This document shows positions 25 through 30,215 of a stretch of DNA of 42,119 nt, in pieces (within the stretch, counting starts at the first letter, position 1; the number at the start of each line of letters is the position of its first letter). The notes beneath the pieces were generated by a model. It worked only from the letters and a program-made list of their open reading frames with translations, made no database searches and was not told where the DNA came from. The stretch comes from Actinobacteria bacterium UBA7422. GTDB taxonomy: Bacteria > Actinomycetota > Actinomycetes > S36-B12. A program made the translations under genes and the position numbers. Where the stretch lies: positions 8,217-50,335 of the forward strand of contig DKME01000129.1 in assembly GCA_002469525.1 (NCBI GenBank). The letters are read 5' to 3'.

Positions 25-2112
25 ATGTGGTCTGGACGTTTCCTGCGGAGGTTCCCTTCGCTACTAGTTGTGCTCGGTATCGGAATAGTCATTGTGCTGT
101 TTTGCCAGTCGATCATCCCTTTGCGCGTGGAACACCTCTTGGAAGAAGGGGAGTGGCATACCGAACCAATCGTGGCTTTGGCAGTACTGATCATTATTCA
201 ACTTGCTGTCAACTATTTGGTAATTTTACGAGCTGACAGGTTGGCTATCGCGACCGCGAGGAAAATTCGGGAGGAAATGTACGACTCGGCCCTTGTCGAA
301 AATAGTGATGAACTTTCGCGGACCGAAATTGCTATCCGGCATACCGGTGACGTTGACAACGTGCAGGTGGCGGTTGAAAAATCCTTGGCCGAAGGAATTC
401 CCGGGGTTCTTCGCATAATTTTAAGTTTGATCCTGCTGTCGTTTATTTCCCTCCCTGCGGGAATCGTCATGATTTTGGCCACCGCAGTTTTCCTCGCTCT
501 ACGATTTGTGATTTCCCGGCGTCTTTTCCAATTGGATCAGGTGCGCCTAACCGAATTAAGCATGGTGGCAACAAGTGTCGACGAGGCAATAATTTCAGCG
601 CGGCCACTCAACGGTCTTGAACTCATTAACTGGGCTAAGGACAGGTTTGATGCCCGTTTGATTGCCCTGTCGAACACTGCCCACCATGTGGGAGTGCTGG
701 CTGCTCGAATGCATACGGCTGCGCACACCGCTGGCCTACTGGGACTTTTTGTCGTAGTGGTCGTTGCGGTGGGACCTTCTGCAGAAAACGTTGGGGTCAT
801 TGCTGCCTCACTGTTGTATATCGAAGGGGTCGTTCGCGGACTTGAATCACTCCCAGGTTGGATTCGGTCGGTTCAGCTAGCGGGGGCCAGCATTGCCCGG
901 ATCCAACAAATCCTTGACTGGAAGGCAACAGACGCATTAATTGATGCAAATATGAAGTCGTTGACCCCGGAGACGATTCCTCCCGGTGTCACCGGTGTTG
1001 TGGTTCCCACTTCAATTGACGTTGAAATTGTGTTGGAAAGTATGGCTAGGACTCTGGGTGAGCACTCACTTTTTGTTCCTGCCAATCCATTGACACTTGA
1101 TGTCAGTGTTGAAGATTTGGCAGCAGGGTCCGGCTTGAAGTGCAGCGTCGAATCATTCCAGGAGATATGCGAAAAAGTTGGTTTGGACTTTGGAGACCCC
1201 CTGGACCAAGCTTCGATTTCAATAAAGACGAGTTTGTCAATGCTGACCGTCAACGATCGACAGAGGCTCGCTATCGCAATAGCGATCGGACAGGAACCAA
1301 AGGCGTTGCTGCTGGGCCCTTTGTTGGCGCTTTCAGACCCCGACTCGGACCTTCACTTGGGAGAACTGGCTGCACAGTTCAACATCCCTCGGGTCCTTTT
1401 CGCACTCAAGGTGAGTGAGCAGGTCCCTTGGACCGAATCGATAGTTTTCCACTCTCAGGCGGGCCCACTTATTGGTGAGCATCAAACCTTGCTGATCGAG
1501 CAACCTCAATATGCGGAAATCTGGGAAAGAAGGCTCAATGCGTCAGAAGTGGATCTGTCTGTGTTGGGCTTGGAAGGGGAGTCTGCCTTCGCACTACAAG
1601 CAAGGCTTGTAACGGAGAAGTACGAGGCCGGGGATTACATCTACCGCGGTGGCGAATTAGCAGATCGAATCGTGTTCCTGATCTCTGGCCGGATCGAAGT
1701 GAACGTTAACGACACAGATGGAGATGCACACCGCGTAGCCGTGATCGGACCTGGTGCCCATTGCGGCGATCTCCGGTTGACCGTAGGTGAGCGTCGCACT
1801 GAGAGCGCGATCGCGCTAGAAAACTGTGTTGTTCGCACTCTGAGCCGGGAAGCAATTGCGGTCGGGGTCACCGGACTCCTGGACCGATCCCCCGTAGAAC
1901 GGAAAATTGTGGCCGCGCTGTTGAGAAACGGACCTTCATCGGAAATTGAACTTATTCCGCTCCTTCCGGGTATTTCGCCCGAACAGATCAAGAAAGCCTT
2001 CGCTCTATTGCTCTCGGACGGAGCGATTGCCGAAGAAAATGGCAAATATCGTGTCCAGCAGAAACGCGCCATTAAGAGTGGAACGGAGTCGCTCTTTGAT
2101 CTCTTGGGTTAA
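25..2112 (+). CDS. ABC-exporter-type membrane protein with a degenerate (pseudo) nucleotide-binding domain, fused to a C-terminal cyclic-nucleotide-binding domain and a winged-helix-like tail
   Basis: 695-aa ORF. aa 1-300 look like a six-helix ABC_membrane domain. aa ~315-505 align to an ABC ATPase but every catalytic motif is degraded: Walker A region is GVTGVVVPTSID (no GxxGxGK[ST]), signature is LTVNDRQR (vs LSGGQRQR), Walker B is ALLLGPLLALSD (no D-E), H-loop is FALKV. aa ~520-615 carry cNMP-binding hallmarks (YIYRGGELADRIVFLISGRIEV ... GPGAHCGDLRL..GERRTESAIAL). The frame is open back to nt 1, so the true start could lie upstream of the window. Confidence 0.6.
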   Translation: MWSGRFLRRFPSLLVVLGIGIVIVLFCQSIIPLRVEHLLEEGEWHTEPIVALAVLIIIQLAVNYLVILRADRLAIATARKIREEMYDSALVENSDELSRTEIAIRHTGDVDNVQVAVEKSLAEGIPGVLRIILSLILLSFISLPAGIVMILATAVFLALRFVISRRLFQLDQVRLTELSMVATSVDEAIISARPLNGLELINWAKDRFDARLIALSNTAHHVGVLAARMHTAAHTAGLLGLFVVVVVAVGPSAENVGVIAASLLYIEGVVRGLESLPGWIRSVQLAGASIARIQQILDWKATDALIDANMKSLTPETIPPGVTGVVVPTSIDVEIVLESMARTLGEHSLFVPANPLTLDVSVEDLAAGSGLKCSVESFQEICEKVGLDFGDPLDQASISIKTSLSMLTVNDRQRLAIAIAIGQEPKALLLGPLLALSDPDSDLHLGELAAQFNIPRVLFALKVSEQVPWTESIVFHSQAGPLIGEHQTLLIEQPQYAEIWERRLNASEVDLSVLGLEGESAFALQARLVTEKYEAGDYIYRGGELADRIVFLISGRIEVNVNDTDGDAHRVAVIGPGAHCGDLRLTVGERRTESAIALENCVVRTLSREAIAVGVTGLLDRSPVERKIVAALLRNGPSSEIELIPLLPGISPEQIKKAFALLLSDGAIAEENGKYRVQQKRAIKSGTESLFDLLG

Positions 2113-2247: not shown

Positions 2248-3012
2248 GTGACCAAGGTCGTTTCGATTCACTCATTTCGTGGTGGAACAGGTAAAAGCAA
2301 TACCAGTTCGAATATTTCGGCGCAATTAGCTGCTATGGGCAACCGGGTTGCAGTGGTTGACACCGACATCCAAAGCCCCGGAATCCACGTGCTCTTTGGT
2401 TTCGCGGACGATCTGGACAACACCCTCAATGACTATTTGTGGGGCAAAATCCCGATCAAAGACGCTGCACATGAGGTCACCGACCGAATTGCGCCCAATG
2501 TAACCGTCGCAGACGGTGGTGCGCTGTACCTGGTCCCTTCAAGTATGAAGTCCGGTGACATTGCCCGCGTGCTGCGTGAAGGCTACGACGTGGGAACCCT
2601 CAACGACGGTTTCCGTGATCTGGCAAAAGATCTTGATTTGGACTATTTGATTATTGACACTCACCCGGGTCTGAACGAGGAAACATTGTTGTCAATCACG
2701 ATCAGTGACGTTCTCCTTCTTCTGATGCGCCCAGATCGCCAAGACTTCCAAGGCACAGCGGTCACCGTTGATGTTGCGCGCAAACTCGGAGTCCCTGAGC
2801 TTTACTTGATCATCAATAAAGTTCCCTCCAATATTGACAAGGAAGACCTACGCGAGCAAATGAAACAGGTCTACGCAGCGGACGTCGCCGCCGTCCTTCC
2901 CCTCGCGGAAGAAGTAGTGCAAAACGCCTCGGAGGGCCTGTTCTCAATCACAAGCCCAGATCACCCATGGTCTGCCGAGATTCGCGCGGCAGTGGAAGTA
3001 ATTTCACAGTAG
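2248..3012 (+). CDS. MinD/ParA-family (SIMIBI class) P-loop ATPase
   Basis: 254-aa ORF with a GTG start 6 nt after AAGGAG (2236-2241). Deviant Walker A is SFRGGTGKSN. Switch region is VVDTDIQSPGIHV. Walker B is YLIIDTHPGL. Arg (codon 2278-2280) sits where MinD/ParA/NifH-type ATPases have the signature Lys. Confidence 0.75.
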   Translation: MTKVVSIHSFRGGTGKSNTSSNISAQLAAMGNRVAVVDTDIQSPGIHVLFGFADDLDNTLNDYLWGKIPIKDAAHEVTDRIAPNVTVADGGALYLVPSSMKSGDIARVLREGYDVGTLNDGFRDLAKDLDLDYLIIDTHPGLNEETLLSITISDVLLLLMRPDRQDFQGTAVTVDVARKLGVPELYLIINKVPSNIDKEDLREQMKQVYAADVAAVLPLAEEVVQNASEGLFSITSPDHPWSAEIRAAVEVISQ

Positions 3013-3052
3013 AGGAATATTGACATGGCCCAAGCCAAAGGAATCTGCGTTA

Positions 3053-3343
3053 ATGAGTAACAGTGAAGAGTTGCGATTCTACAACCGGATGGCAACGAGT
3101 CCACTTTTCTCAGAGGCCATAAGCGGTGCAACGAGCATTGAGTCGGCCATTGAAATTGCAGCAAATCACGGATTCGATGTCGATGAAAGTGCAATTCGAG
3201 TTGCAGCCGGAATCCAATTGACCGGATCGCGAGCGAATAATGCCAACGCTGACCCGAATCCTGAGCTATCGGAATCTGACCTTGAAGCAGTAAGTGGAGC
3301 AGGGGATTGGTGGAAGACTAACTGTGGCCCAATTAGCATGTAG
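3053..3343 (+). CDS. lanA: Nif11-like-leader lanthipeptide precursor (LanA); predicted core DWWKTNCGPISM or GDWWKTNCGPISM
   Basis: 96 aa counted from ATG 3053, with AAGGA at 3038-3042 (10-nt spacer). The N-terminus SEELRFYNRMATSPLFSEAISGATSIESAIEIAANHGFDVDESAI follows the Nif11 domain pattern. ELSESDLEAVSGAG matches the ELSDEELEGVAGG-type double-glycine leader end. The C-terminal 12-13 aa (3305-3340) hold one Thr, one Cys and one Ser. The gene sits directly upstream of a C39-ABC exporter and near a LanM. Confidence 0.7.
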   Translation: MSNSEELRFYNRMATSPLFSEAISGATSIESAIEIAANHGFDVDESAIRVAAGIQLTGSRANNANADPNPELSESDLEAVSGAGDWWKTNCGPISM

Positions 3344-3354
3344 TCCATCGGTTC

Positions 3355-3390
3355 GTATTCCCGCACTAAGTAGAATACCCGCACTATGTA
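3355..3390. repeat. Two tandem 18-nt direct repeats between the precursor gene and the exporter genes
   Basis: gtattcccgcactaagta (3355-3372) is followed directly by gaatacccgcactatgta (3373-3390); 15 of 18 positions are identical by my count. It lies in the 68-nt gap between lanA and the HlyD-like gene. Confidence 0.8.
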
Positions 3391-3411
3391 AGCGAGCAGA
3401 AAAGATCTCAC

Positions 3412-4236
3412 ATGGCTGACCAGAGTGAAGGAAACGGCAGACGTCAATCAGACGTGTTAAACGCGATCTTTGATGCCGTCGAGGAAAAACCGGAACAAGG
3501 GCCAAGAGCCGGATCAAATCTCTTTAGAGTTAAAGCGTTGGAACAAATTGATATTCCAACCCAATTGGACAACCTGCTCCCGATCACTTCCCGCAAATTG
3601 TGGATTTCACTCATCGCTGTCGTGCTGGTTCTAGCAGGTGGACTGGTTTACGCGGGAGGGGTTACTCAGATCTCTTCGGTTTCCGCCGCTGGGAGGGTTG
3701 TGCAGTCGGACGGGATCGCTGTCGCTGCGGCTCCAACTGACTTATTGCTCGCGCAAGTTCTCGTGAACGAAGGACAATTGGTCGCTGAAGGACAAGTTCT
3801 CGGTCAAGGGGTAATTCCCGGTGGTGACCAAGTGTCGATTGTGGCACCCGTCGACGGAACCGTGTGGCAAATCCTTGGAACATTGGGCCGCGTGAGCCCG
3901 GCGGGAGAAGCCGTCATGAGCATCTTGCCCGCTGGAAGTGAAAGCAATGTGCTGATTGCTCTGCCAGAGAGCGATGCAGCCGGGGTTGCTCTTGGTCAAG
4001 TAGTTGAGATTTCCAGTTCGGCGGGAACTCGGACTGGTGAGGTGTCCCACATTGATAGTGCGCCAATTCCCGCGGAAATCGCATCCGAGCGCACGGGATC
4101 GGAGTTTCCCGCGGAGACACCCATGATCATGATTGACGTCACTTTAGACGAACAACTCGATGCTGGATCCTCCGTTAACGCCGAGATTATTGAGTCCGAA
4201 CGCACGCTACTCAATCAGCTGGTGAATGTGGGGTGA
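3412..4236 (+). CDS. HlyD-family membrane-fusion/secretion adaptor (NHLM-type bacteriocin secretion protein), short form
   Basis: 274 aa. N-terminal FRVKALEQIDIPTQLDNLLPITSRKLWISLIAVVLVLAGGLVY (cytoplasmic tail plus one TM helix) is typical of bacteriocin HlyD proteins. It is followed by lipoyl-like half motifs (VNEGQLVAEGQVL ... IVAPVDGTVWQI) and a beta-barrel-like C-terminus. The stop overlaps the next gene's start (GTGA at 4233-4236). Confidence 0.65.
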   Translation: MADQSEGNGRRQSDVLNAIFDAVEEKPEQGPRAGSNLFRVKALEQIDIPTQLDNLLPITSRKLWISLIAVVLVLAGGLVYAGGVTQISSVSAAGRVVQSDGIAVAAAPTDLLLAQVLVNEGQLVAEGQVLGQGVIPGGDQVSIVAPVDGTVWQILGTLGRVSPAGEAVMSILPAGSESNVLIALPESDAAGVALGQVVEISSSAGTRTGEVSHIDSAPIPAEIASERTGSEFPAETPMIMIDVTLDEQLDAGSSVNAEIIESERTLLNQLVNVG

Positions 4237-6377
4237 GCGCTCCACGAAACCACCGGGTGAAAGTACCCACAATGCTCCAAATGGAGTCAACCGAGTGTGG
4301 TGCCGCAAGTTTAGGCATGGTGCTTGCTCACTACGGCCGATTTGAACGACTAGATGCTTTACGCGTTGCCTGTGGCGTCTCACGGGACGGAGCCACAGCC
4401 AAGAACGTTGTATCTGCAGCCCGCAGTTTTGGGCTACAGACTCGTGCGCTGAAGCGCGAACCAGAGGCCCTGAAGACTCTGACATTTCCTTTGGTCGTTC
4501 ACTGGAAGTTCTATCACTACCTGGTTGTCGAAGGCTGGTATCCCGGCGGTTGGTACGTAAATGATCCCGCTAAGGGAAGTGTCAAGATTTCCGCAGACGA
4601 ATTTGATAAGAGTTTCACCGGAATCGCTCTGGAACTGACGCCAGGTGAGGAGTTTGAAAAGTCTGGCGAACGCCCGGGTGTATTGGGCCGCCTGGTAGCA
4701 GCGTCAGGTCACATAGTGCCAGCGGTATTCGCCGCAGTAGTCATTGGACTATTGCTACTCATCCCTACACTTTTGATGCCACAAGTATTGACCTTGTACG
4801 GGAACAATCTCAACGGACTTGTGGGCATAACCGCGGTTTCAACTTTGATCGGACTGGTCCTTGCACTCGGTATTTCTTCAACGTTGCAGGCGCTGCAAGG
4901 TGCTCTCTCAATTCGGCTCTCGACAAAAATTAGCCTAAGGCTCACCGCTTCAATGGTACAGCGGCTCCTCCAACTTCCGGCTTCATTTCACGCGCAAAGG
5001 GGTGCGGCTGTAACCACTCAGAGAGCCTTGCTCATTGACGGAATGAGCGCTGGTGTCAGCGCCTTGACCCTGACCTTGGGAACGGCAGTGTTGACAAGTT
5101 TGGCTGCACTCACTGTTCTATTCCTGATCAACGTTCCCATTGGCGCAACAGCATTAGTGATTGGGCTTCTGACGTTGGTGCTCATTCGTGGAACGTTGAA
5201 TAAGGCAAAAGACGAAGCCGCAAAAGTTGTCGTAGAAACCGTGGAGGCTGGAGCGGTAATGGCTTCTTCCCTTTCCCAAATTGAGTCCATTAAGGCTGCG
5301 GGCTCAGAGGACGGGATGATCGCGCGTGGTGTTGCCGCGACTAACCGGCAATTGGAGGCTGAGCAAAAGGTAGCCATGCGCATGTTGGTCATAAGTTCAG
5401 TACCCACGTTCCTCATTGCACTGGCAAACATTGTGATCATGGGTCTGGCTGTATTTGAGATTTCCCAAGGTCGGCTAGAGCCGGGTGCACTCTTCGCGGT
5501 TATTGCTTTGACCGCAATGTTGGTGGGTCCACTCGCCCAAATCGTCAGCATGCTCGCACAGGTTCAACTCCTTCGCCCAGCGCTTGACCAAGTCGACGAC
5601 GTACTCGACTCCCCACTTGCATTGAGGCCGATTCCCACTGGGCTCGTGCCCGCCGACATTGTGGGCGATGTGCAATTGCGGAATATCAGTTTTGGTTACA
5701 GCTCCCTAGCACCGATGGTGATCAAGGGCCTTGACCTTCATCTACCAGTTGGAGGTCGGGTTGCGTTGGTGGGTCCCTCGGGCTGTGGAAAGTCCACGAT
5801 CTCCAAATTGGTCAGTGATTTATACCAACCGTGGTCAGGGGAAATCCTCATTGATTCCCTTCCACGCGAGGAACATTCTCAGGCGGTTCTCACTGACTCA
5901 ATTGCCCTCGTTGACCAAAACTTAACAATTTTTGCCGGCACAATTCGAGACAACGTCACGTTGTGGGACCCCGAAGTCACGGACGAATCCGTGATTCAAG
6001 CACTCGCCGACGCACAACTCTCACAAGACGTACTTGCTAGGCCGGGGGGACTTGAGGCGGTGCTCTCCGAGGGTGGGGCTGACCTTTCAGGTGGCCAACG
6101 TCAGAGACTTGAGATCGCTAGAGCCCTGGCTCGCAATCCGCGGATTTTGGTGCTCGACGAAGCAACAAGTGCATTAGATCCGCCAACGGAAACCCTCATT
6201 GATCAAGCTATTCGGCGCCGTGGAATCTCCGTCTTGGTAATCGCGCATCGCCTTTCCACAATTCGAGACAGTGACGAAATCGTTGTTCTGGAAGTTGGCG
6301 AAGTTGTTGAGCGAGGAACACATGAAGAACTCATGGCGGCAGAGGGCACGTATTTCGCTTTGGTGAATTCCGGATGA
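4233..6377 (+). CDS. lanT: Bacteriocin/lantibiotic ABC exporter with N-terminal C39 double-glycine leader peptidase domain (LanT / NHLM ABC1 type)
   Basis: 714 aa. C39 motifs are intact: Q16, catalytic Cys22 in STECGAASLGMVLAHYG (codon 4296-4298), His in KFYHYLVVEG and Asp in YVNDPAKG. There is a six-helix TMD. The NBD has GPSGCGKST, LSGGQRQRLEIARAL, ILVLDEATSALD and IAHRLST. Confidence 0.9.
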   Translation: MSAPRNHRVKVPTMLQMESTECGAASLGMVLAHYGRFERLDALRVACGVSRDGATAKNVVSAARSFGLQTRALKREPEALKTLTFPLVVHWKFYHYLVVEGWYPGGWYVNDPAKGSVKISADEFDKSFTGIALELTPGEEFEKSGERPGVLGRLVAASGHIVPAVFAAVVIGLLLLIPTLLMPQVLTLYGNNLNGLVGITAVSTLIGLVLALGISSTLQALQGALSIRLSTKISLRLTASMVQRLLQLPASFHAQRGAAVTTQRALLIDGMSAGVSALTLTLGTAVLTSLAALTVLFLINVPIGATALVIGLLTLVLIRGTLNKAKDEAAKVVVETVEAGAVMASSLSQIESIKAAGSEDGMIARGVAATNRQLEAEQKVAMRMLVISSVPTFLIALANIVIMGLAVFEISQGRLEPGALFAVIALTAMLVGPLAQIVSMLAQVQLLRPALDQVDDVLDSPLALRPIPTGLVPADIVGDVQLRNISFGYSSLAPMVIKGLDLHLPVGGRVALVGPSGCGKSTISKLVSDLYQPWSGEILIDSLPREEHSQAVLTDSIALVDQNLTIFAGTIRDNVTLWDPEVTDESVIQALADAQLSQDVLARPGGLEAVLSEGGADLSGGQRQRLEIARALARNPRILVLDEATSALDPPTETLIDQAIRRRGISVLVIAHRLSTIRDSDEIVVLEVGEVVERGTHEELMAAEGTYFALVNSG

Positions 6378-9214
6378 CCCCGCAAGTTCTCAACGTGTCA
6401 GGGGAGAAAACTCAAGGCGTTGAATCAGGTTTCGTTTACAAGTGTGTCTCTGGAACCATGCTGTTATTCGTTGTTAACCCAGAAGGGCGCAGGCTTCCGG
6501 TTGGTGACTTCTCCGAAGGCGAAGTGGTCATGGGGGCCGACAGGGTCCCGGGTGAATCGCACCTGCTGATCGCCGGCACCCAAGGCACAATCGTGGAGGT
6601 GCACGCCAGCTCGCAGTTCATCGAAAATTCTGGCACCGAAGCAATTTCGCATTGGTTCTATCGGGTTGGTGAGATCGCTCTGGCAGGGCGCTGGGTGCAA
6701 AAGGTTATTGCGCCCAACGGTGAAAAGCTTCGACTCGCTCCAGGTGAAAACGTTGTGACCCGAAGCGACTCGGTCCCGGCCCACAACAAAGAAATCCTGG
6801 GTTGGTTAAAAGTCACGTCGGGGACGGCAACATATTGCGGGTGGGCCTCAGGGCATATCGGGGTCCTGGATGTGGCCGTGCCGATCACCCGTGGTGTGTG
6901 GCTTACCAGCGGGCTTCGCTGCCAGATTCTGGACGCTGCAGCACCCCAGAATCCCCAGGAGTGGGTGGCCGCGAGTGACCTAATGGGAGGGTTGTTGTGT
7001 GCGGCAATAATTGATTCTCAGCGCACTCGCGACGAGAAACGACAAAGTGCCGTGCAAGAAGCAGATTTCGTTATGTCGCAGAGTGTTCAGGCTGGTATCG
7101 ACTCGCTCGCGGGCGCGGTTATTGGAGAGGTCAATTCACAGGAGATCCCACGGGGGCGCGATTACGCTGCATTGACCTGCGGTTTTCGAGTGGCTCAAGC
7201 CACCGGGCTTACGCTCACTGACGGCGCTTGGGATTCGGCAAAGATTGAAGTTGCAACCGGTCGAAACCCGATTTCGATAGTGGCCTCACATGCAGCTGCT
7301 CGCTCGCGAGACGTCACTTTGGAAGCGGGCTGGTGGGAACTTGAAGGGCCACCACTTGTGGCAAAGAGTGAACGGGGCGACTACTTCGCCTTGATTTGGC
7401 AAGGTCGAAAGTGGGAAGCATTTACTGCCGCGGAGCCACATAAGCCGATTGCGGTTGATTCCGAATTCGCTTCGGGGCTATCCCGCTCTGCCACCGAGAT
7501 CGTACCGATCCTTCCCCCTGAACCGAGTGGGCTTTCTGCATTGATTCGCTTAGCGTCCGCGCGATCACGCAGTGATCTGGTAACCCTGGTGGTGTTGACA
7601 GTCGGAATTGCCGCGATGGCGTTTTTTACTCCCTATATTTTAGGGCAGTTAGCCAATTCAATCTCGGAAGTCACCCCTACTTCAATCTTCACGGCCGTTG
7701 GCGCATTAATCCTGATTCTGTTGGCCACAACGGGTTGGGAAATAGTTCGAAGCTTGGCCTTACTTCGAATTAGGATTCGCGGTTCAGCAATTGCAATTGG
7801 TGCAGTGTGGGACCGCATGATGCGTCAGCGTGCCACTTGGCATGACAAATTTACCCTCGGTGAACGTATGACCCAGTCCACTGCTGTCTCAACTTCAGCA
7901 ACGGCCGTGCCTGATGCAACGATTATCGCCTTGATCGACACTGTCACGATAATTGGTGGCTTGGCAGCGATCGCCACGACCAGTTCAGCGCTACTGCTGT
8001 CAATCACAATCTTGTTAGTAATTCAGTTTTCGGTCAACCTTTGGTTCACCAAACTCGGGGCAAAACTCACCTATGAACGCGTTTCGGCAAGTTCAGCGGC
8101 TACCGGTCGCCTGATGGAAACTCTTGGGGCGGTTGACCGAATAAAAGTTTCCGGTGCGCAAGGCCGGGCCTTCAAAAGGTGGGCAAGTGTGCAGGCCCTA
8201 CTGACTTCGGCTGATCTGTCCCTGCGCAAACTGATGGTAATCCAAGGGATTGTATTGGCCGCCTGGCCGATAATTGGACTGATTGTGATTGTGGCAGTGT
8301 CTGGTGCGACGGGAGCAAGTTTCGGGGATTTCGTTACCGCTCAAACTGCCACGGCAATCGCCACCACGACACTGGGCGCCACCTCCATTGCCGCTAGCGC
8401 ACTGCTCAACGGACAAGCTGTTTTACGCAAAGTGAAACCAGTGCTGGAAAGCGAACCCGAAGGGTTCGGGCAGGGAGTGTCACCGGGCAGAATCAGTGGA
8501 GGAGTCAGTTTTAGTGACATAAATTTCCGCTACGATCCGGCCACTAAGCCAGTTCTGAACGGAATCAGCTTTACCGTTAACCCAGGGGAGCATGTCGCAA
8601 TTGTCGGGCCATCGGGTTGTGGGAAAACCACTCTCATGCGTATTTTGCTCGGATTGGAAGAACCAGAGTCCGGCGTTATTTCGGTGGACGGAATGGACAT
8701 GGCCTCACTGGATCGACCATCACTTCGCAGACAAATCGGTAGTGTCCTGCAATCTTCCAAATTATTACCCGGAACAATTTTTGCCAACATTGACATGGGC
8801 AGAGGGCTCAGTCGCGAGCAGGTGTGGGAAGCACTTGAATGGGCCAGCGTGGCAACAGATGTTCGCGCCATGGGGCTTGGCCTAGACACTCCAGTGGTGG
8901 ACGGATCTGGTTCAGTTTCCGGTGGTCAACGTCAGCGGATCCTATTGGCGCGAGCCTTAGCTTCCAACCCTCGCATGCTCGTTCTCGACGAAGCGACCAG
9001 TGCCTTGGACAATGTGACACAGGGTGTGATCGTGGACTTCCTGGACACCCTTCGTCTGACACGAATAGTTGTCGCGCACAGACTGTCTACTATCGCCGGT
9101 GCCGATCGAATCATTGTGTTAGTCGACGGTCACGTAGCGCAGATGGGAACCTATGAGGAACTCACGAGAATCCCGGGTCACTTCAAAGATTTAGCTGAAC
9201 GTCAACTCGCCTGA
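6374..9214 (+). CDS. ABC exporter permease/ATPase with ~390-aa N-terminal extension (NHLM ABC2-like partner subunit)
   Basis: 946 aa; ATGA overlap with the upstream gene (6374-6377). TMD starts near aa 400. The NBD is intact (GPSGCGKTT, VSGGQRQRILLARAL, MLVLDEATSALD, VAHRLST). The N-terminal region has beta-barrel-like segments and a C39-like stretch lacking the catalytic His (GDYFALIWQG). Confidence 0.8.
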   Translation: MTPQVLNVSGEKTQGVESGFVYKCVSGTMLLFVVNPEGRRLPVGDFSEGEVVMGADRVPGESHLLIAGTQGTIVEVHASSQFIENSGTEAISHWFYRVGEIALAGRWVQKVIAPNGEKLRLAPGENVVTRSDSVPAHNKEILGWLKVTSGTATYCGWASGHIGVLDVAVPITRGVWLTSGLRCQILDAAAPQNPQEWVAASDLMGGLLCAAIIDSQRTRDEKRQSAVQEADFVMSQSVQAGIDSLAGAVIGEVNSQEIPRGRDYAALTCGFRVAQATGLTLTDGAWDSAKIEVATGRNPISIVASHAAARSRDVTLEAGWWELEGPPLVAKSERGDYFALIWQGRKWEAFTAAEPHKPIAVDSEFASGLSRSATEIVPILPPEPSGLSALIRLASARSRSDLVTLVVLTVGIAAMAFFTPYILGQLANSISEVTPTSIFTAVGALILILLATTGWEIVRSLALLRIRIRGSAIAIGAVWDRMMRQRATWHDKFTLGERMTQSTAVSTSATAVPDATIIALIDTVTIIGGLAAIATTSSALLLSITILLVIQFSVNLWFTKLGAKLTYERVSASSAATGRLMETLGAVDRIKVSGAQGRAFKRWASVQALLTSADLSLRKLMVIQGIVLAAWPIIGLIVIVAVSGATGASFGDFVTAQTATAIATTTLGATSIAASALLNGQAVLRKVKPVLESEPEGFGQGVSPGRISGGVSFSDINFRYDPATKPVLNGISFTVNPGEHVAIVGPSGCGKTTLMRILLGLEEPESGVISVDGMDMASLDRPSLRRQIGSVLQSSKLLPGTIFANIDMGRGLSREQVWEALEWASVATDVRAMGLGLDTPVVDGSGSVSGGQRQRILLARALASNPRMLVLDEATSALDNVTQGVIVDFLDTLRLTRIVVAHRLSTIAGADRIIVLVDGHVAQMGTYEELTRIPGHFKDLAERQLA

Positions 9215-9250
9215 CGTGAACTCGCCTAATACTTGTCCGTGGCATGTTTA

Positions 9251-12200
9251 CTAGATGAACAAGTGACGCGCGGCGATGCGATCCTGCTTGGTCCCCGAAA
9301 TCTGATTGAGCGCGAAACCGACGCCGGCAAGTCCCTTAAACAGGCTTGGTGCTTGTAGCTCGGGGCTACCAAAGGCGGTAATGCGAAAGCCGCCAAGGCT
9401 GGCTGCGCGAGATTGAATTGCTTCGAGCAACTCTTTGCTCGCAAGATTCCATTGATCTTGGCCGGTTGAGTCACCCAAGTAACTTAGAATTAAGGCCCGT
9501 CCTAGGTTGCCGCAACAAATTGAGTCCAGTCCTACAACGCCGGTGCTTGCTGTGGTGTGGGCTGCGAGAGCTAAATCATGCCTCCACATGTGTCCGTCGT
9601 TGTGATCTGGAACAAGTTCCAGCGCGCGCATGCGTGTCAGTGCAATACCGGGTGCCCCTGCGCACCAGCCATACATAAATTTGTCTTCCGAAGCTTTTGT
9701 ATTGTGCTCTCGCAGGTCTCGCCAGTTTCCCGCGGAGGCTACGAAGTCAGCTGACTCGGTAGACATGGCTCGAGCGCCGGCATCTATGAAATCAGTGTTC
9801 TCTAAAGCAACTCCTATTTCGATTAAAGCTATTCCGATACCGCTTGAACCGTGGGCCAAGCCGTTAAGGGCACGTGATGAGAATTGCCCGATCCAATTTC
9901 CGTCTTCGGTGAGGTTCTTAATCAGGTGATGTGCGATCAATTCCACGGCGTTGCGGGTTACAGGTTCACCGAATGCGGTGAACCTACGGGCTAAGGCCCC
10001 TGCGCTGCCGGCAACACCGCTGATGACGTCAAATGATCGATCCCGTGCCACGAGTTGCTCGGTGACTAATTCACTGAAGGCATCCCAGAATATTGCAGCT
10101 TTGCCAGGTTCAAGGCTTGAATTGGTCTCGAGGTATTCATAGAGTCGAGCAACCCCACCGATACCATTAATGCCAAGCCCATTGTCTCGCACCGCTCGAA
10201 ATGCCGCCCCATCCTGTGAATGAGTAAACAGGCTCTCGACCTCGACCATCGCCTCAGTGACTTGGACGTCACTACGTTGGCTTGAGAAAAATGCCATGAG
10301 TCCGGCACGACCGCCGTACAAGTTCAACGAAATGGATTGCAGTGCAAAGTGATCTGCATTTCCTTGAGCCTCCAACACAAGCCAGGTCGGATTGCCAGCG
10401 GTGTCCTTGAGTGTCAGGTCCGTGAGTTGATTGGCAATCTGTGTAGGCGTAAGGGCAGTAAATTCAACTATTTCCGCAGACGAACTTTGCTGAGCCTGAT
10501 GAATTGAATCACGCGAAGCAAATGCGCCACGAATCAGCCGAGCTTGCCACTCTAGTTCTGAAGGGGAGAACCGCTCGAGCCGCAAGGTTGCGGCATGTAT
10601 TCCCTCACTTGAGATCACTCCTTCAATATCTCCGAAATCAGACCTAATTGAAGTCGAACCAAGGGGAAAGTCGAAATACGGTATGTCGTAGTTCTCCATT
10701 GCCCGTAGTTCTTCATGGAAAATTTTCCAATGCGCTGTCTGCTCTGTAGCGATTAACCAAGACCTCGAAAGTCTGTCAATTTCAATTCCTCGAAGCAGCG
10801 GCTGTGCCATGCACTCTGGTCGAAGTGCTCGGCTGGACAGAATGGCGTACGTACTCGTATTGCGCATGACTATTCGACGGTTAATTCCGTGAAAACGTTG
10901 AAAACGTCGCGCAATTTCAACGCGAATGTCTGGATTAAGAACCAAGTTATACACCTGTGTAAAGCCGCTGATTATCTCTTCCAAATGGTTAGACAATGGG
11001 TTAGCAACACCCAATGAGACAGGTAGTGAAGTTGGTGCACGCGCTGGTATTTCATGAGCATCAAGGTGCATCGCGTCGCTGTTGATCTTGACCCAGCCAC
11101 GGGTTTTAACGGTGGCCTTGATTGCTGAATCAATGCCAAGTGCACTCCAATCTGCCAGTGGGGCACCTACTGCAATCGAGCGCCAATTAGGAAGCATTCC
11201 GATTCGAAGTACAGAGTCTTGAAGGCCGTCAATCACTGAGGGCTCGGTCTCAATAAAATTACTAAGTTCACTGTCGAAAATAGTCTCAGCGTCAATGAGA
11301 AATAGGTCGGTTCCGTTGGCGATCAAATTTTCGGTGTGGCAATCTGAACCGTTAACCATATAAATGATTCCAAGTAGCCTGCCGGAATTTTCATAGAACT
11401 CGGGAAGTCCAGATGACTCACACGGAATGTGCTCAATGAATTCCGCGTAACCATGGGTTTCCCCTACCGCCGCAATGGTTATTTGACGGAGCGATTCTCC
11501 CGGCAGTTGCGACTTGATCCAGCCAAGGAAGTCGTTGAATTCCGCCTCAATACGCATGTCTTTGGGTTTATAAACTACTGACCAGCCGGGGTGCGAATCA
11601 GTGGAGTGCGATTCGCAGAAAAACAGAACCGCAACCTCTTGGCCACCACGGTGCGGATCACTGAGTGCCAAGGTGAGCCCGCAGAGTCCGGCATTTAGTG
11701 GAATCCCGAATGTATTCAACAGGGTGTCGCGATCCTGGTGGACTCGTTCCAGGAGTGAGCGCGTATTTTTCTCCCATTGAAGTGTGACAATTCCGAGCAA
11801 CCGACCAATCCCCGGGTACTCGGCAAGTAGTGACTCCAAAGCGTCTGACAAGGTGTCGTTGCAAAACTGCTGGTAGCTGCGTGCACCGGCTGCGGCTAGT
11901 AAAGTCCTCGAGGTCATGTGCGAAAGTCGTGAAATCAGGACTTTCACCAGTTCCTGTTCCATGAGAGCAGTGGGGATCAGTGTGGTCAGCGGATTGAGGC
12001 TGTCGAAAAATTCCCGAGTGGTCTGCTCAACCAGCGGCGCCAACACATGATAAAACGGAATCGCGCCTTCACCAACGTTGTGATCGAAATCAATCGATCG
12101 CTCTGAAAGTTGAGAGCGAATTTTCGTGAGCTTGTGCACCCATGGAGATGATCCAGCGGTATCGAGGTTCTGGGCCAACATCGCCACAGCATGACCAAAG

Positions 12201-12382
12201 TTAATTCCATCCCAGGACAGTCGACGCTCAAAATTACCTAACCCGGCCGGATCAATCAGGGCGCGCCAACTATCGAGCACTGGCGTCAAGTCTGCCGAAA
12301 GGTCCAAGGGATCCAGAGGTGCCAGTTTTGGAGCTTCCGCCAGTCGTTCATCCCATGAGGGAAAAAAGGGGCTCGAGATCAC
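9251..12382 (-). CDS. lanM: Class II lanthipeptide synthetase LanM (dehydratase/kinase domain plus LanC-like cyclase), CCG-type
   Basis: 1043 aa, GTG start. The dehydratase catalytic region is GSDCHTENLIANGTDLFLIDAETIF (DCHTEN = 11327-11344, checked against the nucleotides). The C-terminal LanC-like motifs are GLAHGSSGIGIAL, GWCAGAPGIAL and SICCGNLG (CCG = 9509-9517, checked). It is convergent with exporter module 1 and divergent from module 2. Confidence 0.9.
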   Translation of the reverse strand: MISSPFFPSWDERLAEAPKLAPLDPLDLSADLTPVLDSWRALIDPAGLGNFERRLSWDGINFGHAVAMLAQNLDTAGSSPWVHKLTKIRSQLSERSIDFDHNVGEGAIPFYHVLAPLVEQTTREFFDSLNPLTTLIPTALMEQELVKVLISRLSHMTSRTLLAAAGARSYQQFCNDTLSDALESLLAEYPGIGRLLGIVTLQWEKNTRSLLERVHQDRDTLLNTFGIPLNAGLCGLTLALSDPHRGGQEVAVLFFCESHSTDSHPGWSVVYKPKDMRIEAEFNDFLGWIKSQLPGESLRQITIAAVGETHGYAEFIEHIPCESSGLPEFYENSGRLLGIIYMVNGSDCHTENLIANGTDLFLIDAETIFDSELSNFIETEPSVIDGLQDSVLRIGMLPNWRSIAVGAPLADWSALGIDSAIKATVKTRGWVKINSDAMHLDAHEIPARAPTSLPVSLGVANPLSNHLEEIISGFTQVYNLVLNPDIRVEIARRFQRFHGINRRIVMRNTSTYAILSSRALRPECMAQPLLRGIEIDRLSRSWLIATEQTAHWKIFHEELRAMENYDIPYFDFPLGSTSIRSDFGDIEGVISSEGIHAATLRLERFSPSELEWQARLIRGAFASRDSIHQAQQSSSAEIVEFTALTPTQIANQLTDLTLKDTAGNPTWLVLEAQGNADHFALQSISLNLYGGRAGLMAFFSSQRSDVQVTEAMVEVESLFTHSQDGAAFRAVRDNGLGINGIGGVARLYEYLETNSSLEPGKAAIFWDAFSELVTEQLVARDRSFDVISGVAGSAGALARRFTAFGEPVTRNAVELIAHHLIKNLTEDGNWIGQFSSRALNGLAHGSSGIGIALIEIGVALENTDFIDAGARAMSTESADFVASAGNWRDLREHNTKASEDKFMYGWCAGAPGIALTRMRALELVPDHNDGHMWRHDLALAAHTTASTGVVGLDSICCGNLGRALILSYLGDSTGQDQWNLASKELLEAIQSRAASLGGFRITAFGSPELQAPSLFKGLAGVGFALNQISGTKQDRIAARHLFI

Positions 12383-12507: not shown

Positions 12508-13341
12508 TTGCGCAAGCAAAAATCGTGTGTGAGCGATTCAGGCCCCAGCACAAAGTTCGAGGTCGAGTCCCCGATAGCCCGCCTTGACCAGGTGGTAATT
12601 TTTGGCAAACCACGCCTCTGGGTAGGACTCTTAGGGGTTATTTCACTTATTCTCGCCGGGCTCGTGTGGGGTTTATTGTCCTCTCCGCCAGTAACGGTGG
12701 GTGCTCGAGGCGTCCTCTCCACTCAAGGCGGCCCACTTGAGATTGGAACTTCCCAGAGTGGAACCGTGACCGGGCTTAACGTGGTTCTGGGGGAGAGCGT
12801 TCAACGCTTTAACGTAATTGCCGTCGTTCAAGACGACCAAGGAAATTTTTCACCCATAACCACTTCGGTATCGGGAACCGTGATTGAGATCTCAACACAG
12901 GTGGGCGACTTTGTTAGAGAGGGCGAGAGCATCGCGATAATTCAGGATTCGCGCGAGCAATTGCAAGCTATCGCGTTAATCCCTGTCTCAACTGTGGGAA
13001 CAATAGAAGTGGGTCAGCCGGTGAATATCACCGCTGTTTCTGTTCCTGTGGGACAGTTCGGATACCTCCAGGGCACCGTGGCAACTATTTCAAGTATCCC
13101 GATGAGCCGTGCCCGAGTCAATCAATTGGTGGGCAGCGTCGCGGGATATCAAGACATTGACACATTGTCCGAGCCAATCGTTGAGGTGCGTGTGGATCTA
13201 ACGCAGGATCCAGAAACCGTCTCCGGATTTGCCTGGACAATTGGAGTTGGGCCCCCATTTGGCCTGCTGGCCGGTACTCCTTGGACCGGCGACATTATTA
13301 CCGGATTTCAAAGCCCGCTCACATCACTTTTCGGTTCCTAA
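12508..13341 (+). CDS. HlyD-family secretion adaptor, short form (paralogue of 3412-4236)
   Basis: 277 aa from TTG 12508 (alternative GTG at 12529). It has the same layout as the first HlyD-like protein: a short tail, one TM helix (LWVGLLGVISLILAGLVWGLL), lipoyl-like halves (VSGTVIEISTQVGDFVREGESIAIIQ) and a beta-barrel region. The stop overlaps the next start (TAATG at 13339-13343). Confidence 0.6.
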   Translation: MRKQKSCVSDSGPSTKFEVESPIARLDQVVIFGKPRLWVGLLGVISLILAGLVWGLLSSPPVTVGARGVLSTQGGPLEIGTSQSGTVTGLNVVLGESVQRFNVIAVVQDDQGNFSPITTSVSGTVIEISTQVGDFVREGESIAIIQDSREQLQAIALIPVSTVGTIEVGQPVNITAVSVPVGQFGYLQGTVATISSIPMSRARVNQLVGSVAGYQDIDTLSEPIVEVRVDLTQDPETVSGFAWTIGVGPPFGLLAGTPWTGDIITGFQSPLTSLFGS

Positions 13342-17875: not shown

Positions 17876-18771
17876 TGCGCTCAACCAAGTGGATCTCCAA
17901 GATAGCCATTGGTCTTTTTTTGGGCACCCTCACACTAAGCGGCTGCAGCAGCACAGATCCGTCCACGGTCAGCGAGGGCTCGAATAGTGGGTCGATTGAT
18001 AGCACGGCAATAGATGAGACACGTCCCTCGCGCCCGCTTACGGTTGCCTATTGGAATGCTGCTCCAGGAGCGTATCTCAATAGTGAAGGCGAATTGGTGG
18101 GCTGGGAAATCGAGTTAATCCAACGGGTATCCCGTGAGCTCGAGACCGAAGTTGAGTTCATCCAGATGGATTTCGCAGACATCTTGCCAGCGGTGATTTC
18201 AGGGGAAGTAGATCTTGGGGTCGGTAGTATTTTTTCCACTCCTGAGCGACAAGTGTATGTCGATTTTGTCAATTATGGACAAGGCGGGGTCTCGTGGGCC
18301 ACCCTGACCGATCGCGTGGAAAGTCCGTTTGACCCATGCGGGTGGAGGGTCGCCGGTGAAATAGACACGACGAATGTAAATGTTTCACTTCCGAATGCCT
18401 CAATTGATTGCAGGGCTGCTGGGAAGGAACCCATCACGATTGTGCCGGTCCAAGATTTGCCTGTTGCGGTGAATTTGTTGCAAAGAGAAGAGATAGACGC
18501 CTTTATCGGAGACAGTCCGACCGTTACGTACATTATTCAAGAGTCAGGTGGGCGAATTGCCCAAACAGGGGTCACGCAAGAGGTTCAGTCCTATGGAATC
18601 GCTGTCAATAAAGACGATCGAGAGTTATCAGAGTCTTTCGTTGACGCACTGACAAGTTGGTCAGCGAGCGGGGACTACAACCGCCTGTTAGGCAAGTGGG
18701 CTGTATCCGATAGTGAGGTTAGTTTTTTCACGATTAATCAATTGAATCCAAATGATGCAGAATCACAATAA
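17875..18771 (+). CDS. Family-3 solute-binding protein (amino-acid-type SBP), lipoprotein
   Basis: 298 aa; the ATG overlaps the upstream stop (TAATG at 17873-17877). Lipobox is LTLSGC with Cys24. SBP_bac_3-like core: LTVAYWNAAPGAYLNSEGELVGWEIELIQRVSRELETEVEFIQMDFADILPAVISGEVDLGVGSIFSTPERQVYVDFVNY. Confidence 0.8.
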   Translation: MRSTKWISKIAIGLFLGTLTLSGCSSTDPSTVSEGSNSGSIDSTAIDETRPSRPLTVAYWNAAPGAYLNSEGELVGWEIELIQRVSRELETEVEFIQMDFADILPAVISGEVDLGVGSIFSTPERQVYVDFVNYGQGGVSWATLTDRVESPFDPCGWRVAGEIDTTNVNVSLPNASIDCRAAGKEPITIVPVQDLPVAVNLLQREEIDAFIGDSPTVTYIIQESGGRIAQTGVTQEVQSYGIAVNKDDRELSESFVDALTSWSASGDYNRLLGKWAVSDSEVSFFTINQLNPNDAESQ

Positions 18772-20176
18772 GAAGACCTCGCGTTGGTCGACGCTGACAT
18801 ACCGATTAGCGCTGTTGATCGCCGCATTGCTGGGAATTTCCGCAATCTTAACCACGACATTTGCAGTGAAGACTGTTCAGGATTCCCTCTATGAAGAAGT
18901 AACGCAATCCATGCTCAATGTCCATAATTCTGTTGCTACCACGGTGGCACTCGAGTATGAGGCCGTACAGGCTTACCGTGAAGCAACGCTGCAAAGTCGC
19001 AGGGCTTCACTTGAAAGCATTTCGGCACCCATTGTGTCCTCATTGGATCAACTCGTGCTCCTTGCTGACCGCGGCGAATTGACTCAGGAGCAAGCGCAGT
19101 CATCAGGACTTGATCTCGTTCGTGATGTGAGATTCGGTAACGATGACTACTTTTTTGTGTACAACCGAGATCTGGTAGCAATTGGTCATCCAGATCCTCA
19201 ATTTCAGGGACAGTTTCTCGGAGACATGCAAGATCCAAATGGTCAATTTGTAGTGCGCGACTTGGCCGAAATTGCATTTGATCAAGGTTCAGGTTTCTAT
19301 AGTTACGAATGGGTAAGGCTTGGCCAGGGTGAACCTTCTCCGAAAATTGCCTATGTCTTTCACTACAAACCATGGGACTGGATGATTGGCACCGGTGTTT
19401 ACGTTGATGACATAGATCAGGCAGCCTCGGATCGACTTGAGGTTGTCAAAAGCCAATTGGGCGAATCACTGTACGACATTCGTTTTTCTGAAGGCAGCGT
19501 ATTTTTCGTTCTTGATAGCAGTGGTGAGATTGTGGTGGCACCGAGTGATCAATTTGGTGGCAGTCCAATTGAGAGTACAGATGAAGTACAGAGAATCGGC
19601 ACTTCCATCATCGCTTCCGCACCCACAACTGCTGGAGTGGTGAGTGAGCAGGTGGTGTCGGCTACGTTGCGTGACGGTGTCGCCGAGGAGTGGGTCACCA
19701 ATGTATCTGCTTTTCCCAACCTCGGCTGGTACCTCCTCTCCGCAGTGCCCGCTTCCGAATTGAGCAAAACGGGCCAGAGGATTGCAATAGAGCAAGCGAT
19801 TATGGGTGTAGTGGTCTTGATCCTAGGAATTGGTGCCGGACTGCTACTGAGTCGACGTATTATCCGTCCGGTGCAGAGTGTGACGAATGCGGCTCGGGAA
19901 CTCTCCGAGGATCGATTTGATCCAGATACTCTCAATCAAGCTGCCGAACGAAAAGACGAGGTCGGTGAATTGGCTCGTGTTTTCCAGCGGATGGGTAAGG
20001 AGCTGATCGAGCGAGAACGCAAGTTACGTGAGCAAGTGGCAAAGCTCAAAGTACAAATTGACCGCAGCAAACTAGCCGAAGACATTGAAGAGATTACTGA
20101 GACCGATTACTTCAAACGAATCAAAGCGCAAGCTGATGAGATGCGAAAGAACAAACCGAGCAAGGAAACAGAATGA
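18752..20176 (+). CDS. Membrane sensor with periplasmic/extracellular Cache-like domain and cytoplasmic HAMP domain, no recognisable output domain
   Basis: 474 aa; overlaps the SBP gene by 20 nt. TM1 is LALLIAALLGISAILTTTFAV. A ~300-aa extracytoplasmic region carries a Cache-type motif (DDYFFVYNRDLVAIGHPDPQFQGQ ... YSYEWVR ... KIAYVFHYKPWDWMIGTGVYVDD). TM2 is AIMGVVVLILGIGAGLLLS. HAMP is RRIIRPVQSVTNAARELSE...DEVGELARVFQRMGKEL. It ends in a ~55-aa charged coiled-coil tail. Confidence 0.7.
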   Translation: MMQNHNKKTSRWSTLTYRLALLIAALLGISAILTTTFAVKTVQDSLYEEVTQSMLNVHNSVATTVALEYEAVQAYREATLQSRRASLESISAPIVSSLDQLVLLADRGELTQEQAQSSGLDLVRDVRFGNDDYFFVYNRDLVAIGHPDPQFQGQFLGDMQDPNGQFVVRDLAEIAFDQGSGFYSYEWVRLGQGEPSPKIAYVFHYKPWDWMIGTGVYVDDIDQAASDRLEVVKSQLGESLYDIRFSEGSVFFVLDSSGEIVVAPSDQFGGSPIESTDEVQRIGTSIIASAPTTAGVVSEQVVSATLRDGVAEEWVTNVSAFPNLGWYLLSAVPASELSKTGQRIAIEQAIMGVVVLILGIGAGLLLSRRIIRPVQSVTNAARELSEDRFDPDTLNQAAERKDEVGELARVFQRMGKELIERERKLREQVAKLKVQIDRSKLAEDIEEITETDYFKRIKAQADEMRKNKPSKETE

Positions 20177-29184: not shown

Positions 29185-29300
29185 GTTCCCTCATTTGACT
29201 GATGAACGTTTGAGTGATTAATTTTTTGATGTGAGTGAAGGCCAAGTCACTTGAAAAAAGAGTCGCTTTCGTGTGTATATGCGCAGACGCTAATACAGTT

Positions 29301-29360
29301 TCTGTTTTTTTGTAACGTTTTTGGCATTTTTTTTATTTTTTATTTTTTTTCTGTTTTCCT
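29301..29360. promoter_or_regulatory. Extreme T-rich tract in a divergent promoter region
   Basis: 43 of the 60 nt from 29301 to 29360 are T on the + strand (hand count), including runs of 7-8 T. It sits in the 262-nt gap between the rhodanese-MBL gene (minus) and the DsrE-like gene (plus). Confidence 0.5.
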
Positions 29361-30210: not shown

Positions 30211-30215
30211 CTTAC

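Follow-up and report, generated by a model that had tools for sequence, protein, structure and literature searches.

A family of ABC exporter-like proteins with degenerate nucleotide-binding domains and a variant cyclic-nucleotide-type domain in freshwater Actinobacteria

ATP-driven alternating access is the defining property of ATP-binding cassette (ABC) exporters. At one end of a 42,119-nucleotide stretch of DNA from Actinobacteria bacterium UBA7422 (contig DKME01000129.1, positions 8,217 to 50,335; the window, in what follows) lies a gene for a protein with the architecture of such an exporter in which the motifs for ATP binding and hydrolysis are gone. A transmembrane domain (TMD) is followed by a degenerate nucleotide-binding domain (NBD), a cyclic nucleoside monophosphate (cNMP)-binding-type β-barrel, a winged helix-turn-helix (wHTH), and a short basic tail, and the gene stands immediately ahead of one for a MinD/ParA-like ATPase and of a class II lanthipeptide locus (Table 1). 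The dead NBD represents an ancient, family-wide loss that is under purifying selection.

The open reading frame at positions 25-2112 of the forward strand, which encodes 695 residues, is present as an earlier note on this DNA, made from the sequence alone, had described it. The window edge probably cuts the gene, however. The frame is open to base 1 of the window, and nucleotides 1-24 read KEVSPHFF where relatives keep SPxFFTW; an ATG is found 36 nucleotides upstream of nucleotide 25, outside the window (seen at 9960-10003 of L024, a locus from the window's own genome), and 707-residue forms of the protein exist in the database. On these three grounds the upstream ATG is probably the true start and the 707-residue form the real one.

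Pfam, profile searches, a motif map, and an AlphaFold model compared with known structures by Foldseek agree on the order TMD - NBD fold - cNMP domain - winged helix that the earlier note had read from the sequence. The Pfam ABC_membrane model (PF00664) matches residues 32-247 with an E value of 1e-5 and 25.8 bits, slightly below its gathering score of 28, and it matches all 22 family members scanned, the best with an E value of 1.7e-15. When a profile built from seven homologues was compared with solved exporters, BmrA aligned with it over positions 16-523, covering TMD and NBD (E value 2e-14); a family profile matched BmrA and MsbA over the same two domains with E values of 1e-14 to 1e-12. 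The AlphaFold model, for which 113 aligned sequences were used, has a predicted local distance difference test score (pLDDT) of 88.2 and a predicted template modeling score (pTM) of 0.74. Foldseek aligned some 575 of its columns to MsRv1273c/72c, TM287/288, MsbA, TmrAB, and PCAT1, at a target-normalized template modeling (TM) score of ~0.70 and with E values down to 4e-17. Together with the modeled helices, these matches bear out the description of the first 300 residues as a normal-looking exporter TMD. NCBIfam has no family above cut-off for this protein and no specific model for any of the three tiers of homologues described below.

The region between the TMD and the β-barrel is degenerate to the point that Pfam ABC_tran (PF00005) does not match it in this protein, and weak matches to the same model occur in 13 of the 22 family members. 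That it derives from an NBD follows from the profile matches to the NBDs of solved exporters: the seven-homologue profile aligned with NBD2 of ABCB1 over positions 358-508 (E value 2e-16), in addition to the match to BmrA already given, which settles the origin of residues 315-505 in the sense proposed earlier. Motif positions were read off the 113-sequence alignment. The canonical Walker A sequence GPSGSGKST has become VPTSIDVEI (residues 326-334), the glutamine of the Q-loop is a proline (LFVPANP, residues 349-355), the LSGGQ signature reads LTVND (residues 407-411), with only the RQRL that follows it kept, LLDEAT of Walker B is LLGPLL (residues 429-434), and THRL of the H-loop is LKVS. The degradation of Walker A, signature, Walker B, and H-loop described in the earlier note is thus confirmed, and the Q-loop has to be added to the list. 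The placement of Walker A is backed by the alignment and by the model, in which the strand-loop-helix of the P-loop is retained (strand 321-326, helix 333-344). A competing placement came from an hhalign comparison with the neighboring ABC2 protein, which aligned VTGVVVPTSID with the strand that comes after the Walker A helix and not with the P-loop; it was ruled out by the same alignment and modeled geometry. In the clade to which the protein belongs, the NBD lacks its first strands as well as the YDPxxGxVxxDGxDxR segment that follows the Walker A helix, so that ~45-50 of its residues are gone. Since all NBD catalytic motifs are lost family-wide, the statement that this protein cannot hydrolyze ATP by itself is well founded as a prediction from sequence, and its ATPase activity has in all likelihood been lost.

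The extent of the family was established by searching 1.84 billion representatives (clusters at 50% identity) exhaustively with HMMER, which returned three tiers of homologues. The first, comprising ~25 full-length clusters of 720-785 residues that range down to 29% identity, is the family proper; the second consists of relatives of ~930 residues with an N-terminal extension, and the third of many proteins of 705-750 residues. Walker A, SGG, and Walker B are wholly absent from the first two tiers and are all present in the third. A database of 5.8 billion proteins holds 35 close homologues, all of them full length, at identities of 100, 96, 78, 67, and 41-42%. Measured against the 96% relative, at a synonymous divergence (dS) of 0.24, the ratio of nonsynonymous to synonymous substitution rates (dN/dS) is 0.081 for the whole protein, 0.095 for the TMD, 0.089 for the pseudo-NBD, 0.026 for the cNMP domain, and 0.087 for the wHTH. 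At larger distances the pseudo-NBD diverges fastest, with 54-62% identity compared with 70-85% for the TMD. Three elements are nearly invariant across the family, namely ERQRL, the D-loop-like ALxDPD, and SRHTxDVD of the first intracellular loop (ICL1), and the conservation of the last two argues that the TMD-NBD architecture is still in use.

These data also dispose of the view, which the earlier note had named as one that would overturn its own, that the gene is a decaying pseudogene, a relic of a cNMP-regulated ABC exporter. The loss of every catalytic motif and the deletion within the NBD are what such decay might look like. Against it stand a frame that is intact, at 695 or 707 residues, in more than 100 contigs, the low dN/dS against the 96% relative, an architecture kept down to the most distant members of the family, and a confident AlphaFold model. 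We regard decay as excluded by selection and conservation for all practical purposes.

The order of the domains is not what sets the protein apart, contrary to the suggestion that it is unusual. Of the 150 top-ranking representatives in the exhaustive search with a length of 640 residues or more, 72 combine an intact Walker A with a C-terminal cNMP domain, compared with 33 that have a C-terminal cNMP domain and no Walker A, nearly all of the latter with a wHTH. By Pfam, two of the live-NBD proteins (P0097 and P0112) carry ABC_membrane, a live ABC_tran, and cNMP_binding, a third (P0090) adds MarR_2 in precisely the order seen here, and a fourth (P0092) has cNMP domains at both ends. The wHTH and the basic tail likewise occur in proteins with a live NBD (P0089, P0090, P0095, P0096, and P0105). 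The protein of the window is accordingly the dead-ATPase branch, as judged from these comparisons, of a common but uncharacterized class of exporters, and only the dead NBD and a phosphate-binding cassette that has diverged alongside it are distinctive. Database names for the class and the branch differ: members of the class are called "ATP-binding cassette subfamily B protein" and those of the family "CRP-like cAMP-binding protein."

The cNMP-type domain gives a clearly significant Pfam match (PF00027, residues 531-611, E value 3e-16, 59.6 bits where 27.5 is the cut-off) and is matched in all 22 family members scanned, which bears out the fold assigned earlier to residues 520-615. Its phosphate-binding cassette is a different matter. 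Live-NBD relatives have the canonical FGE[IL]AL..PRTATV, whereas the dead-NBD family has CGDLRLT.GERRAET: the glycine is kept, phenylalanine is replaced by cysteine, glutamate by aspartate (in 20 of 22 members), alanine by arginine, and the alanine that follows R-[ST/A] by glutamate (also in 20 of 22). The key arginine is retained in 19 of the 22; the earlier note had called the cassette partly conserved. The pocket was thus altered together with the loss of the ATPase, and its ligand may no longer be cyclic AMP (cAMP) or cyclic GMP (cGMP). The cNMP-type domain of the peptidase-containing exporter HetC binds guanosine tetraphosphate (ppGpp) in vitro and not cAMP (PMC10986499), which means that domains of this type carried by exporters need not bind a cNMP. 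The 42-kb window encodes no nucleotide cyclase.

Beyond the barrel, the model places three helices (residues 623-635, 640-646, and 652-664) and a β-hairpin (strands 668-671 and 674-677), in keeping with the winged helix suspected from the sequence pattern. A profile of 32 C termini agrees, if marginally: its matches are AdcR of the MarR type (E value 1.2e-3), HlyU of the ArsR/SmtB type (2.5e-3), and further wHTH regulators, with Crp appearing only at an E value of ~1. The core of the wHTH is net acidic (mean charge -1.7, range -6 to 0), and helix 3, the putative recognition helix, exposes mostly alanine, aspartate, glutamate, or serine, at positions that show little conservation. Positive charge is located instead in helix 1 and in the conserved basic, amphipathic tail. 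Classical operator binding by this domain is therefore doubtful. The tail had been considered as a docking peptide for the MinD-like ATPase, an idea that was downgraded because live-NBD relatives carry it too.

A cNMP-type domain followed by a wHTH follows the logic of the Crp/Fnr regulators, and the protein could on this basis be a membrane-tethered one-component transcription factor: the cNMP-type domain would sense cAMP, cGMP, or another nucleotide, the winged helix, bound to DNA at the membrane, would control the adjacent lanthipeptide and export genes, and the dead ABC part would serve as dimeric anchor or co-sensor. Crp of Mycobacterium tuberculosis aligns with residues 515-676 (E value 1e-6), the matches to the wHTH profile (AdcR, HlyU, MarR, ArsR) are all DNA-binding regulators, the cassette arginine is kept, the gene heads a locus for a ribosomally synthesized and post-translationally modified peptide (RiPP), and a short tandem repeat lies just upstream of it. 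However, the model contains no long dimerization helix of the Crp type, only a short helix (608-615) and then a loop, and the NCBIfam CRP, FixK, and YeiL models score 14-16 bits against cut-offs of 180-300 (for the Crp models, ~14 bits against cut-offs above 260). The acidic core and the acidic recognition helix also speak against it, as does the presence, directly upstream, of a gene for a LuxR-type regulator. On balance we think this explanation unlikely, albeit one to be taken seriously. The looser idea of a membrane-tethered cNMP sensor, raised in the earlier note, is plausible, with reservations that arise from the divergence of the cassette from its canonical form and from a wHTH that is acidic and not Crp-like.

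The upstream region is visible in two loci from the window's own genome (L024 and L025). There, the gene is directly preceded by those for a LuxR/GerE response regulator and a 694-residue protein with a weak C-terminal HATPase_c match (E value 0.008; L024, 6995-9877), which may serve the lanthipeptide locus as a divergent two-component pair. The possibility that the 694-residue protein is a paralogue of the pseudo-ABC protein was ruled out by an hhalign probability of 0.1%. Between this kinase-like gene and the pseudo-ABC gene, at 9874-9912 of L024, a 9-nucleotide unit (GTGATCCCC) is repeated 4.3 times in tandem; it could be a regulator-binding site or slippage-prone DNA.

Downstream, the MinD/ParA-like ATPase is the immediate neighbor, with a good Shine-Dalgarno sequence. 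Arginine replaces the signature lysine of its deviant Walker A motif, GKS and Walker B are intact, and its NCBIfam scores are below cut-offs. It lies no more than 10 kb from the pseudo-ABC gene in 12 loci, and it is 77-87% identical to the window's copy in the Ca. Nanopelagicales loci that carry that gene, in which the pseudo-ABC protein itself is only ~40% identical. Membrane proteins with HAMP domains form the second recurrent association. The Cache-HAMP gene, which in the window stands at 18752-20176, adjoins the pseudo-ABC gene in L005, L017, L019, L020, L001, and L028, and in the first four of these a gap of only 3-8 nucleotides makes the pair apparently translationally coupled. In L005, the locus of the 67% relative, the pseudo-ABC gene stands between those for SBP_bac_3 and Cache-HAMP, an arrangement different from that of the window, so the gene has moved within its neighborhood. 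Elsewhere, it travels with genes that are absent from the window, encoding a HAMP-only protein (~355 residues), a 231-residue protein without a Pfam match, and a polytopic membrane protein of 481 residues; with the MinD-like ATPase these make up a core module (L010, 13049-16359; L028, 9769-12980; L030, 9775-12952). The polytopic proteins, of ~480 residues, carry DDPWDFL in the N-terminal and NWRLRRRKQNR in the C-terminal part, and both HAMP proteins end in a conserved extension, EITESDYF...AxEMR. The full module is found in an abundant lineage (L028/L029). The earlier note did not mention this conserved linkage to the ATPase and the HAMP proteins.

Table 1. Features of the pseudo-ABC gene and of its neighborhood in the window
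Feature	Position (nucleotides)	Strand	Remarks
Gene for pseudo-ABC exporter with cNMP domain and winged helix	1..2112	+	695 residues from ATG at nucleotide 25
Type IV ABC-exporter TMD (residues 1-300)	25..924	+	Pfam ABC_membrane; PDB profile matches; AlphaFold helices over residues 2-297; Foldseek
ICL1 motif IRHTGDVDNV (residues 104-113)		+	inside TMD; conserved
Degenerate NBD (pseudo-NBD; residues ~305-505)	937..1539	+	ABCB1 NBD2 profile match; motif map; covered by Foldseek alignment
Walker A remnant GVVVPTSIDVEI (residues 324-335)	994..1029	+	lysine and glycines lost; strand-loop-helix kept in model
Signature remnant LTVNDRQR (residues 407-414)	1243..1266	+	LSGGQ lost, RQR kept
Walker B/D-loop remnant LLLGPLLALSD (residues 428-438)	1306..1338	+	DE replaced by GP; D-loop AL.D conserved
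H-loop remnant FALKV (residues 459-463)	1399..1413	+	His replaced by Lys
cNMP-binding-type β-barrel (residues 531-611)	1615..1857	+	PF00027
Variant phosphate-binding cassette CGDLRLTVGERRTES (residues 580-594)	inside cNMP barrel	+	compared with live-NBD relatives
ArsR/MarR-like winged helix (residues 623-678)	1891..2058	+	AlphaFold secondary structure; AdcR and HlyU profile matches
Conserved basic stretch and short amphipathic helix (residues 679-695, ending KRAIKSGTESLFDLLG)	2059..2109	+	alignment; disordered in monomer model (pLDDT <50)
MinD/ParA-like ATPase, 254 residues, deviant Walker A FRGGTGKS	2248..3012	+	Pfam and NCBIfam matches
Nif11-leader precursor, 107 residues	3020-3343		
HlyD	3412-4236		
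C39-ABC1	4233-6377		
ABC2 (ABC2a, 946 residues)	6374-9214		
LanM, 1043 residues	9251-12382	-	opposite orientation
Second HlyD/C39-ABC1/ABC2 set	12508-17875		
SBP_bac_3	17875-18771		
dCache-HAMP membrane protein, no output domain	18752..20176	+	Pfam; directly adjoins the pseudo-ABC gene in relatives

The frequent company of an ATPase raises the possibility that transport persists and is energized or gated in trans. The MinD/ParA-like (SIMIBI) ATPase might power the TMD as ArsA, which we take to belong to the same ATPase class, does ArsB; alternatively, the protein might be a facilitator or channel that is ligand-gated through its cNMP-type domain, comparable to cyclic-nucleotide-gated channels and CFTR. 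The strong conservation of the TMD and of the coupling motifs, with an invariant ICL1 motif, would make sense on this view, as would the intact GKS and Walker B of the ATPase, its position immediately downstream, and the number of loci in which the two genes are linked. Against this, each of the two is found without the other, as detailed below, the module is rich in HAMP signaling proteins and not in transport parts, and no substrate is indicated. Trans-energized or gated transport therefore strikes us as quite unlikely.

The genes that follow the ATPase (3020-12382) constitute the class II lanthipeptide locus, with Nif11-leader precursor, HlyD, C39-ABC1, ABC2, and LanM. Compared with the 78% relative, the precursor shows only 50% identity and the transporters 76-85%. 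The N-terminal extension of ABC2a (6374-7600), of ~270-400 residues, has no Pfam match even at an E value of 0.01, and TIGR03797 starts at residue 273. Near the second HlyD/C39-ABC1/ABC2 set there is no precursor gene, and the set is followed by the genes for SBP_bac_3 and Cache-HAMP, within the region 12508-20176; the listed TTG start of its ABC1 overlaps the end of HlyD by ~60 nucleotides (13281-13341), and the real start is probably further downstream. Farther on, positions 28018-41508 hold genes of ordinary metabolism, including a rhodanese-MBL protein, DsrE, an NrfD/4Fe-4S and molybdopterin oxidoreductase pair, and a histidine-utilization set (HAL, an imidazolonepropionase-like protein, urocanase, an IclR regulator, and an arginase-family enzyme). 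The window has no match to Rfam and no tRNA in the scans made for them, and terminator-like sites are no more frequent between its genes than expected by chance.

Four intact exporters are therefore encoded close to the pseudo-ABC gene, and the first suggestion of the earlier note was that the protein is the regulatory half of a heterodimeric ABC exporter that modulates an intact half, for example NHLM ABC1 or ABC2. Heterodimeric exporters in which one site is degenerate have ample precedent, with TM287/288 and TmrAB among the best structural matches, and one metagenome-assembled genome (MAG) holds two paralogues of the pseudo-ABC gene (L007 and L010). Pairing with one of the four neighbors is not supported, however. 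These score 522-733 bits with the NHLM models TIGR03796 and TIGR03797 and already form two complete HlyD + ABC1 + ABC2 sets, the pseudo-ABC protein matches neither model and has no C39 domain, and most loci of the family have no ABC gene within 10 kb. Moreover, because the protein is dead on its Walker A/B side as well as on its signature side, a heterodimer would be defective in both composite ATP sites, unlike the known exporters with one degenerate site. We consider a heterodimeric role distinctly improbable.

Relatives' loci were sought in one genome per species, and the 17 found at 33-41% identity all come from Ca. Nanopelagicales or from freshwater MAGs of Actinomycetota. The MinD-like protein of the window is 81% identical to proteins labeled Ca. 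Nanopelagicales, and the guanine + cytosine content of the window, 0.536, lies within the 0.51-0.68 of related loci. The cyanobacterial exporters to which the protein had initially been compared are thus not supported as a frame of reference; nothing points to cyanobacteria. Export loci of the LanM/NHLM type are found near the pseudo-ABC gene in the window, L002, L005, L010, and L014, and an NHLM/LanM linkage also holds for L030.

The explanation that we favor, at somewhat less than even odds (a rough probability of 0.45), is that of a pseudo-transporter acting as a membrane-embedded signaling or regulatory subunit and not as an ATP-driven pump. The protein would have arisen from the widespread class of ABC exporters in which a C-terminal cNMP domain, with or without a winged helix, acts as a regulatory module; the ATPase would have died in this branch, and the cNMP-type ligand pocket would have changed alongside. 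What remains would be a pseudo-ABC exporter, probably homodimeric, that keeps the exporter TMD, the coupling region, and the NBD fold. The conformational state of the TMD, a ligand on the cNMP-type domain, or both might then be relayed to partner proteins by way of the pseudo-NBD, the winged helix, and the basic tail. As the gene travels with them, the MinD/ParA-like ATPase and the Cache-HAMP and HAMP membrane proteins, which lack an output domain, are the best candidates for such partners. The position of the gene, between a LuxR-type two-component pair and a lanthipeptide/NHLM locus, makes the control or sensing of peptide export the most likely setting. This proposal of function is drawn entirely from anatomy and synteny.

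Several observations weigh against it. ATP-independent transport, by a facilitator or channel, is compatible with the sequence, and the retention of the key phosphate-binding arginine is compatible with ordinary cNMP regulation. The MinD-like family has more than 8000 database matches compared with ~60 for the pseudo-ABC family, and its core module is also found in loci that lack the pseudo-ABC gene (L030/L031, where it lies directly beside SBP_bac_3, ABC2, C39-ABC1, and HlyD), such that the ATPase is not dependent on the pseudo-ABC protein. Conversely, no MinD-like gene lies within 10 kb of the pseudo-ABC gene in L005, L007, L012, and L013, and the basic tail, being present in live-NBD relatives, predates the MinD linkage.

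A bolder picture can be drawn, to which we attach a low probability: an ATP-independent ABC-fold transducer, with the TMD as receptor or gate (for the peptide of the linked NHLM/lanthipeptide locus, for example, or for a lipid), might be switched by the re-tuned cNMP-type domain, by the MinD/ParA-like ATPase in trans, or by both. The Cache-HAMP and HAMP, ~480-residue polytopic, and 231-residue proteins would then complete a new signaling machine of abundant freshwater Actinobacteria.

An exporter family without any ATPase motif, yet under strong purifying selection, would be a clear case of a pseudoenzyme among ABC exporters, and one that would surprise specialists in these transporters. It would offer a natural system for asking what an exporter scaffold does without ATP, be it sensing, gating, or scaffolding. 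What is new is the family-level combination of a dead NBD with a re-tuned cNMP/wHTH module, the exporter class itself being already known; a literature search turned up no account of fully degenerate ABC exporters, of the MinD/HAMP module, or of lanthipeptides from Nanopelagicales. The analysis also brings to light an undescribed conserved module of MinD/ParA-like ATPase, HAMP-only receptors, membrane protein of unknown function, and pseudo-ABC protein, and the repeated linkage to NHLM/lanthipeptide export loci hints at peptide-based signaling in freshwater Ca. Nanopelagicales and Actinomycetota. For annotation, the consequence is that the protein should be named neither an active ABC transporter nor a Crp regulator, the label that some sources now give it.

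Transporter folds have been re-used for sensing and signaling elsewhere, as in UhpC and the BceAB-type sensing transporters, which act together with membrane signaling proteins. The analogy is one of function, and no homology is claimed; the folds differ or the ATPases are active. The Crp/Fnr factors share the succession of a cNMP-type barrel and a winged-type HTH; the protein described here differs from them in lacking the long dimerization helix, in a wHTH closer to ArsR and MarR, in its membrane anchorage through an ABC scaffold, and in falling far below the NCBIfam Crp cut-offs. HetC of Nostoc PCC 7120 and the "cyclic nucleotide-regulated" PCAT/NHLM exporters likewise fuse a peptide-exporter scaffold to a cNMP-type domain in a context of export or signaling. 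HetC, however, carries its cNMP domain at the N terminus, has a C39 peptidase, and relies on an ATPase that is both active and essential; the protein described here shares none of these features. The best structural matches, TM287/288, TmrAB, and Rv1273c/72c, set a precedent for non-catalytic NBD motifs in exporters, but these have only a single degenerate composite site and still use ATP to drive transport, whereas the pseudo-ABC protein is dead on both the P-loop and signature sides and usually has no partner gene. Its nearest sequence relatives outside the family are the live-NBD exporters with a C-terminal cNMP domain, such as P0090, P0097, and P0112, which have the same domain order, some with a MarR/ArsR-like wHTH and a basic tail. 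They keep Walker A, LSGGQ, Walker B, the H-loop, and the canonical cassette, all of which the pseudo-ABC protein has lost.

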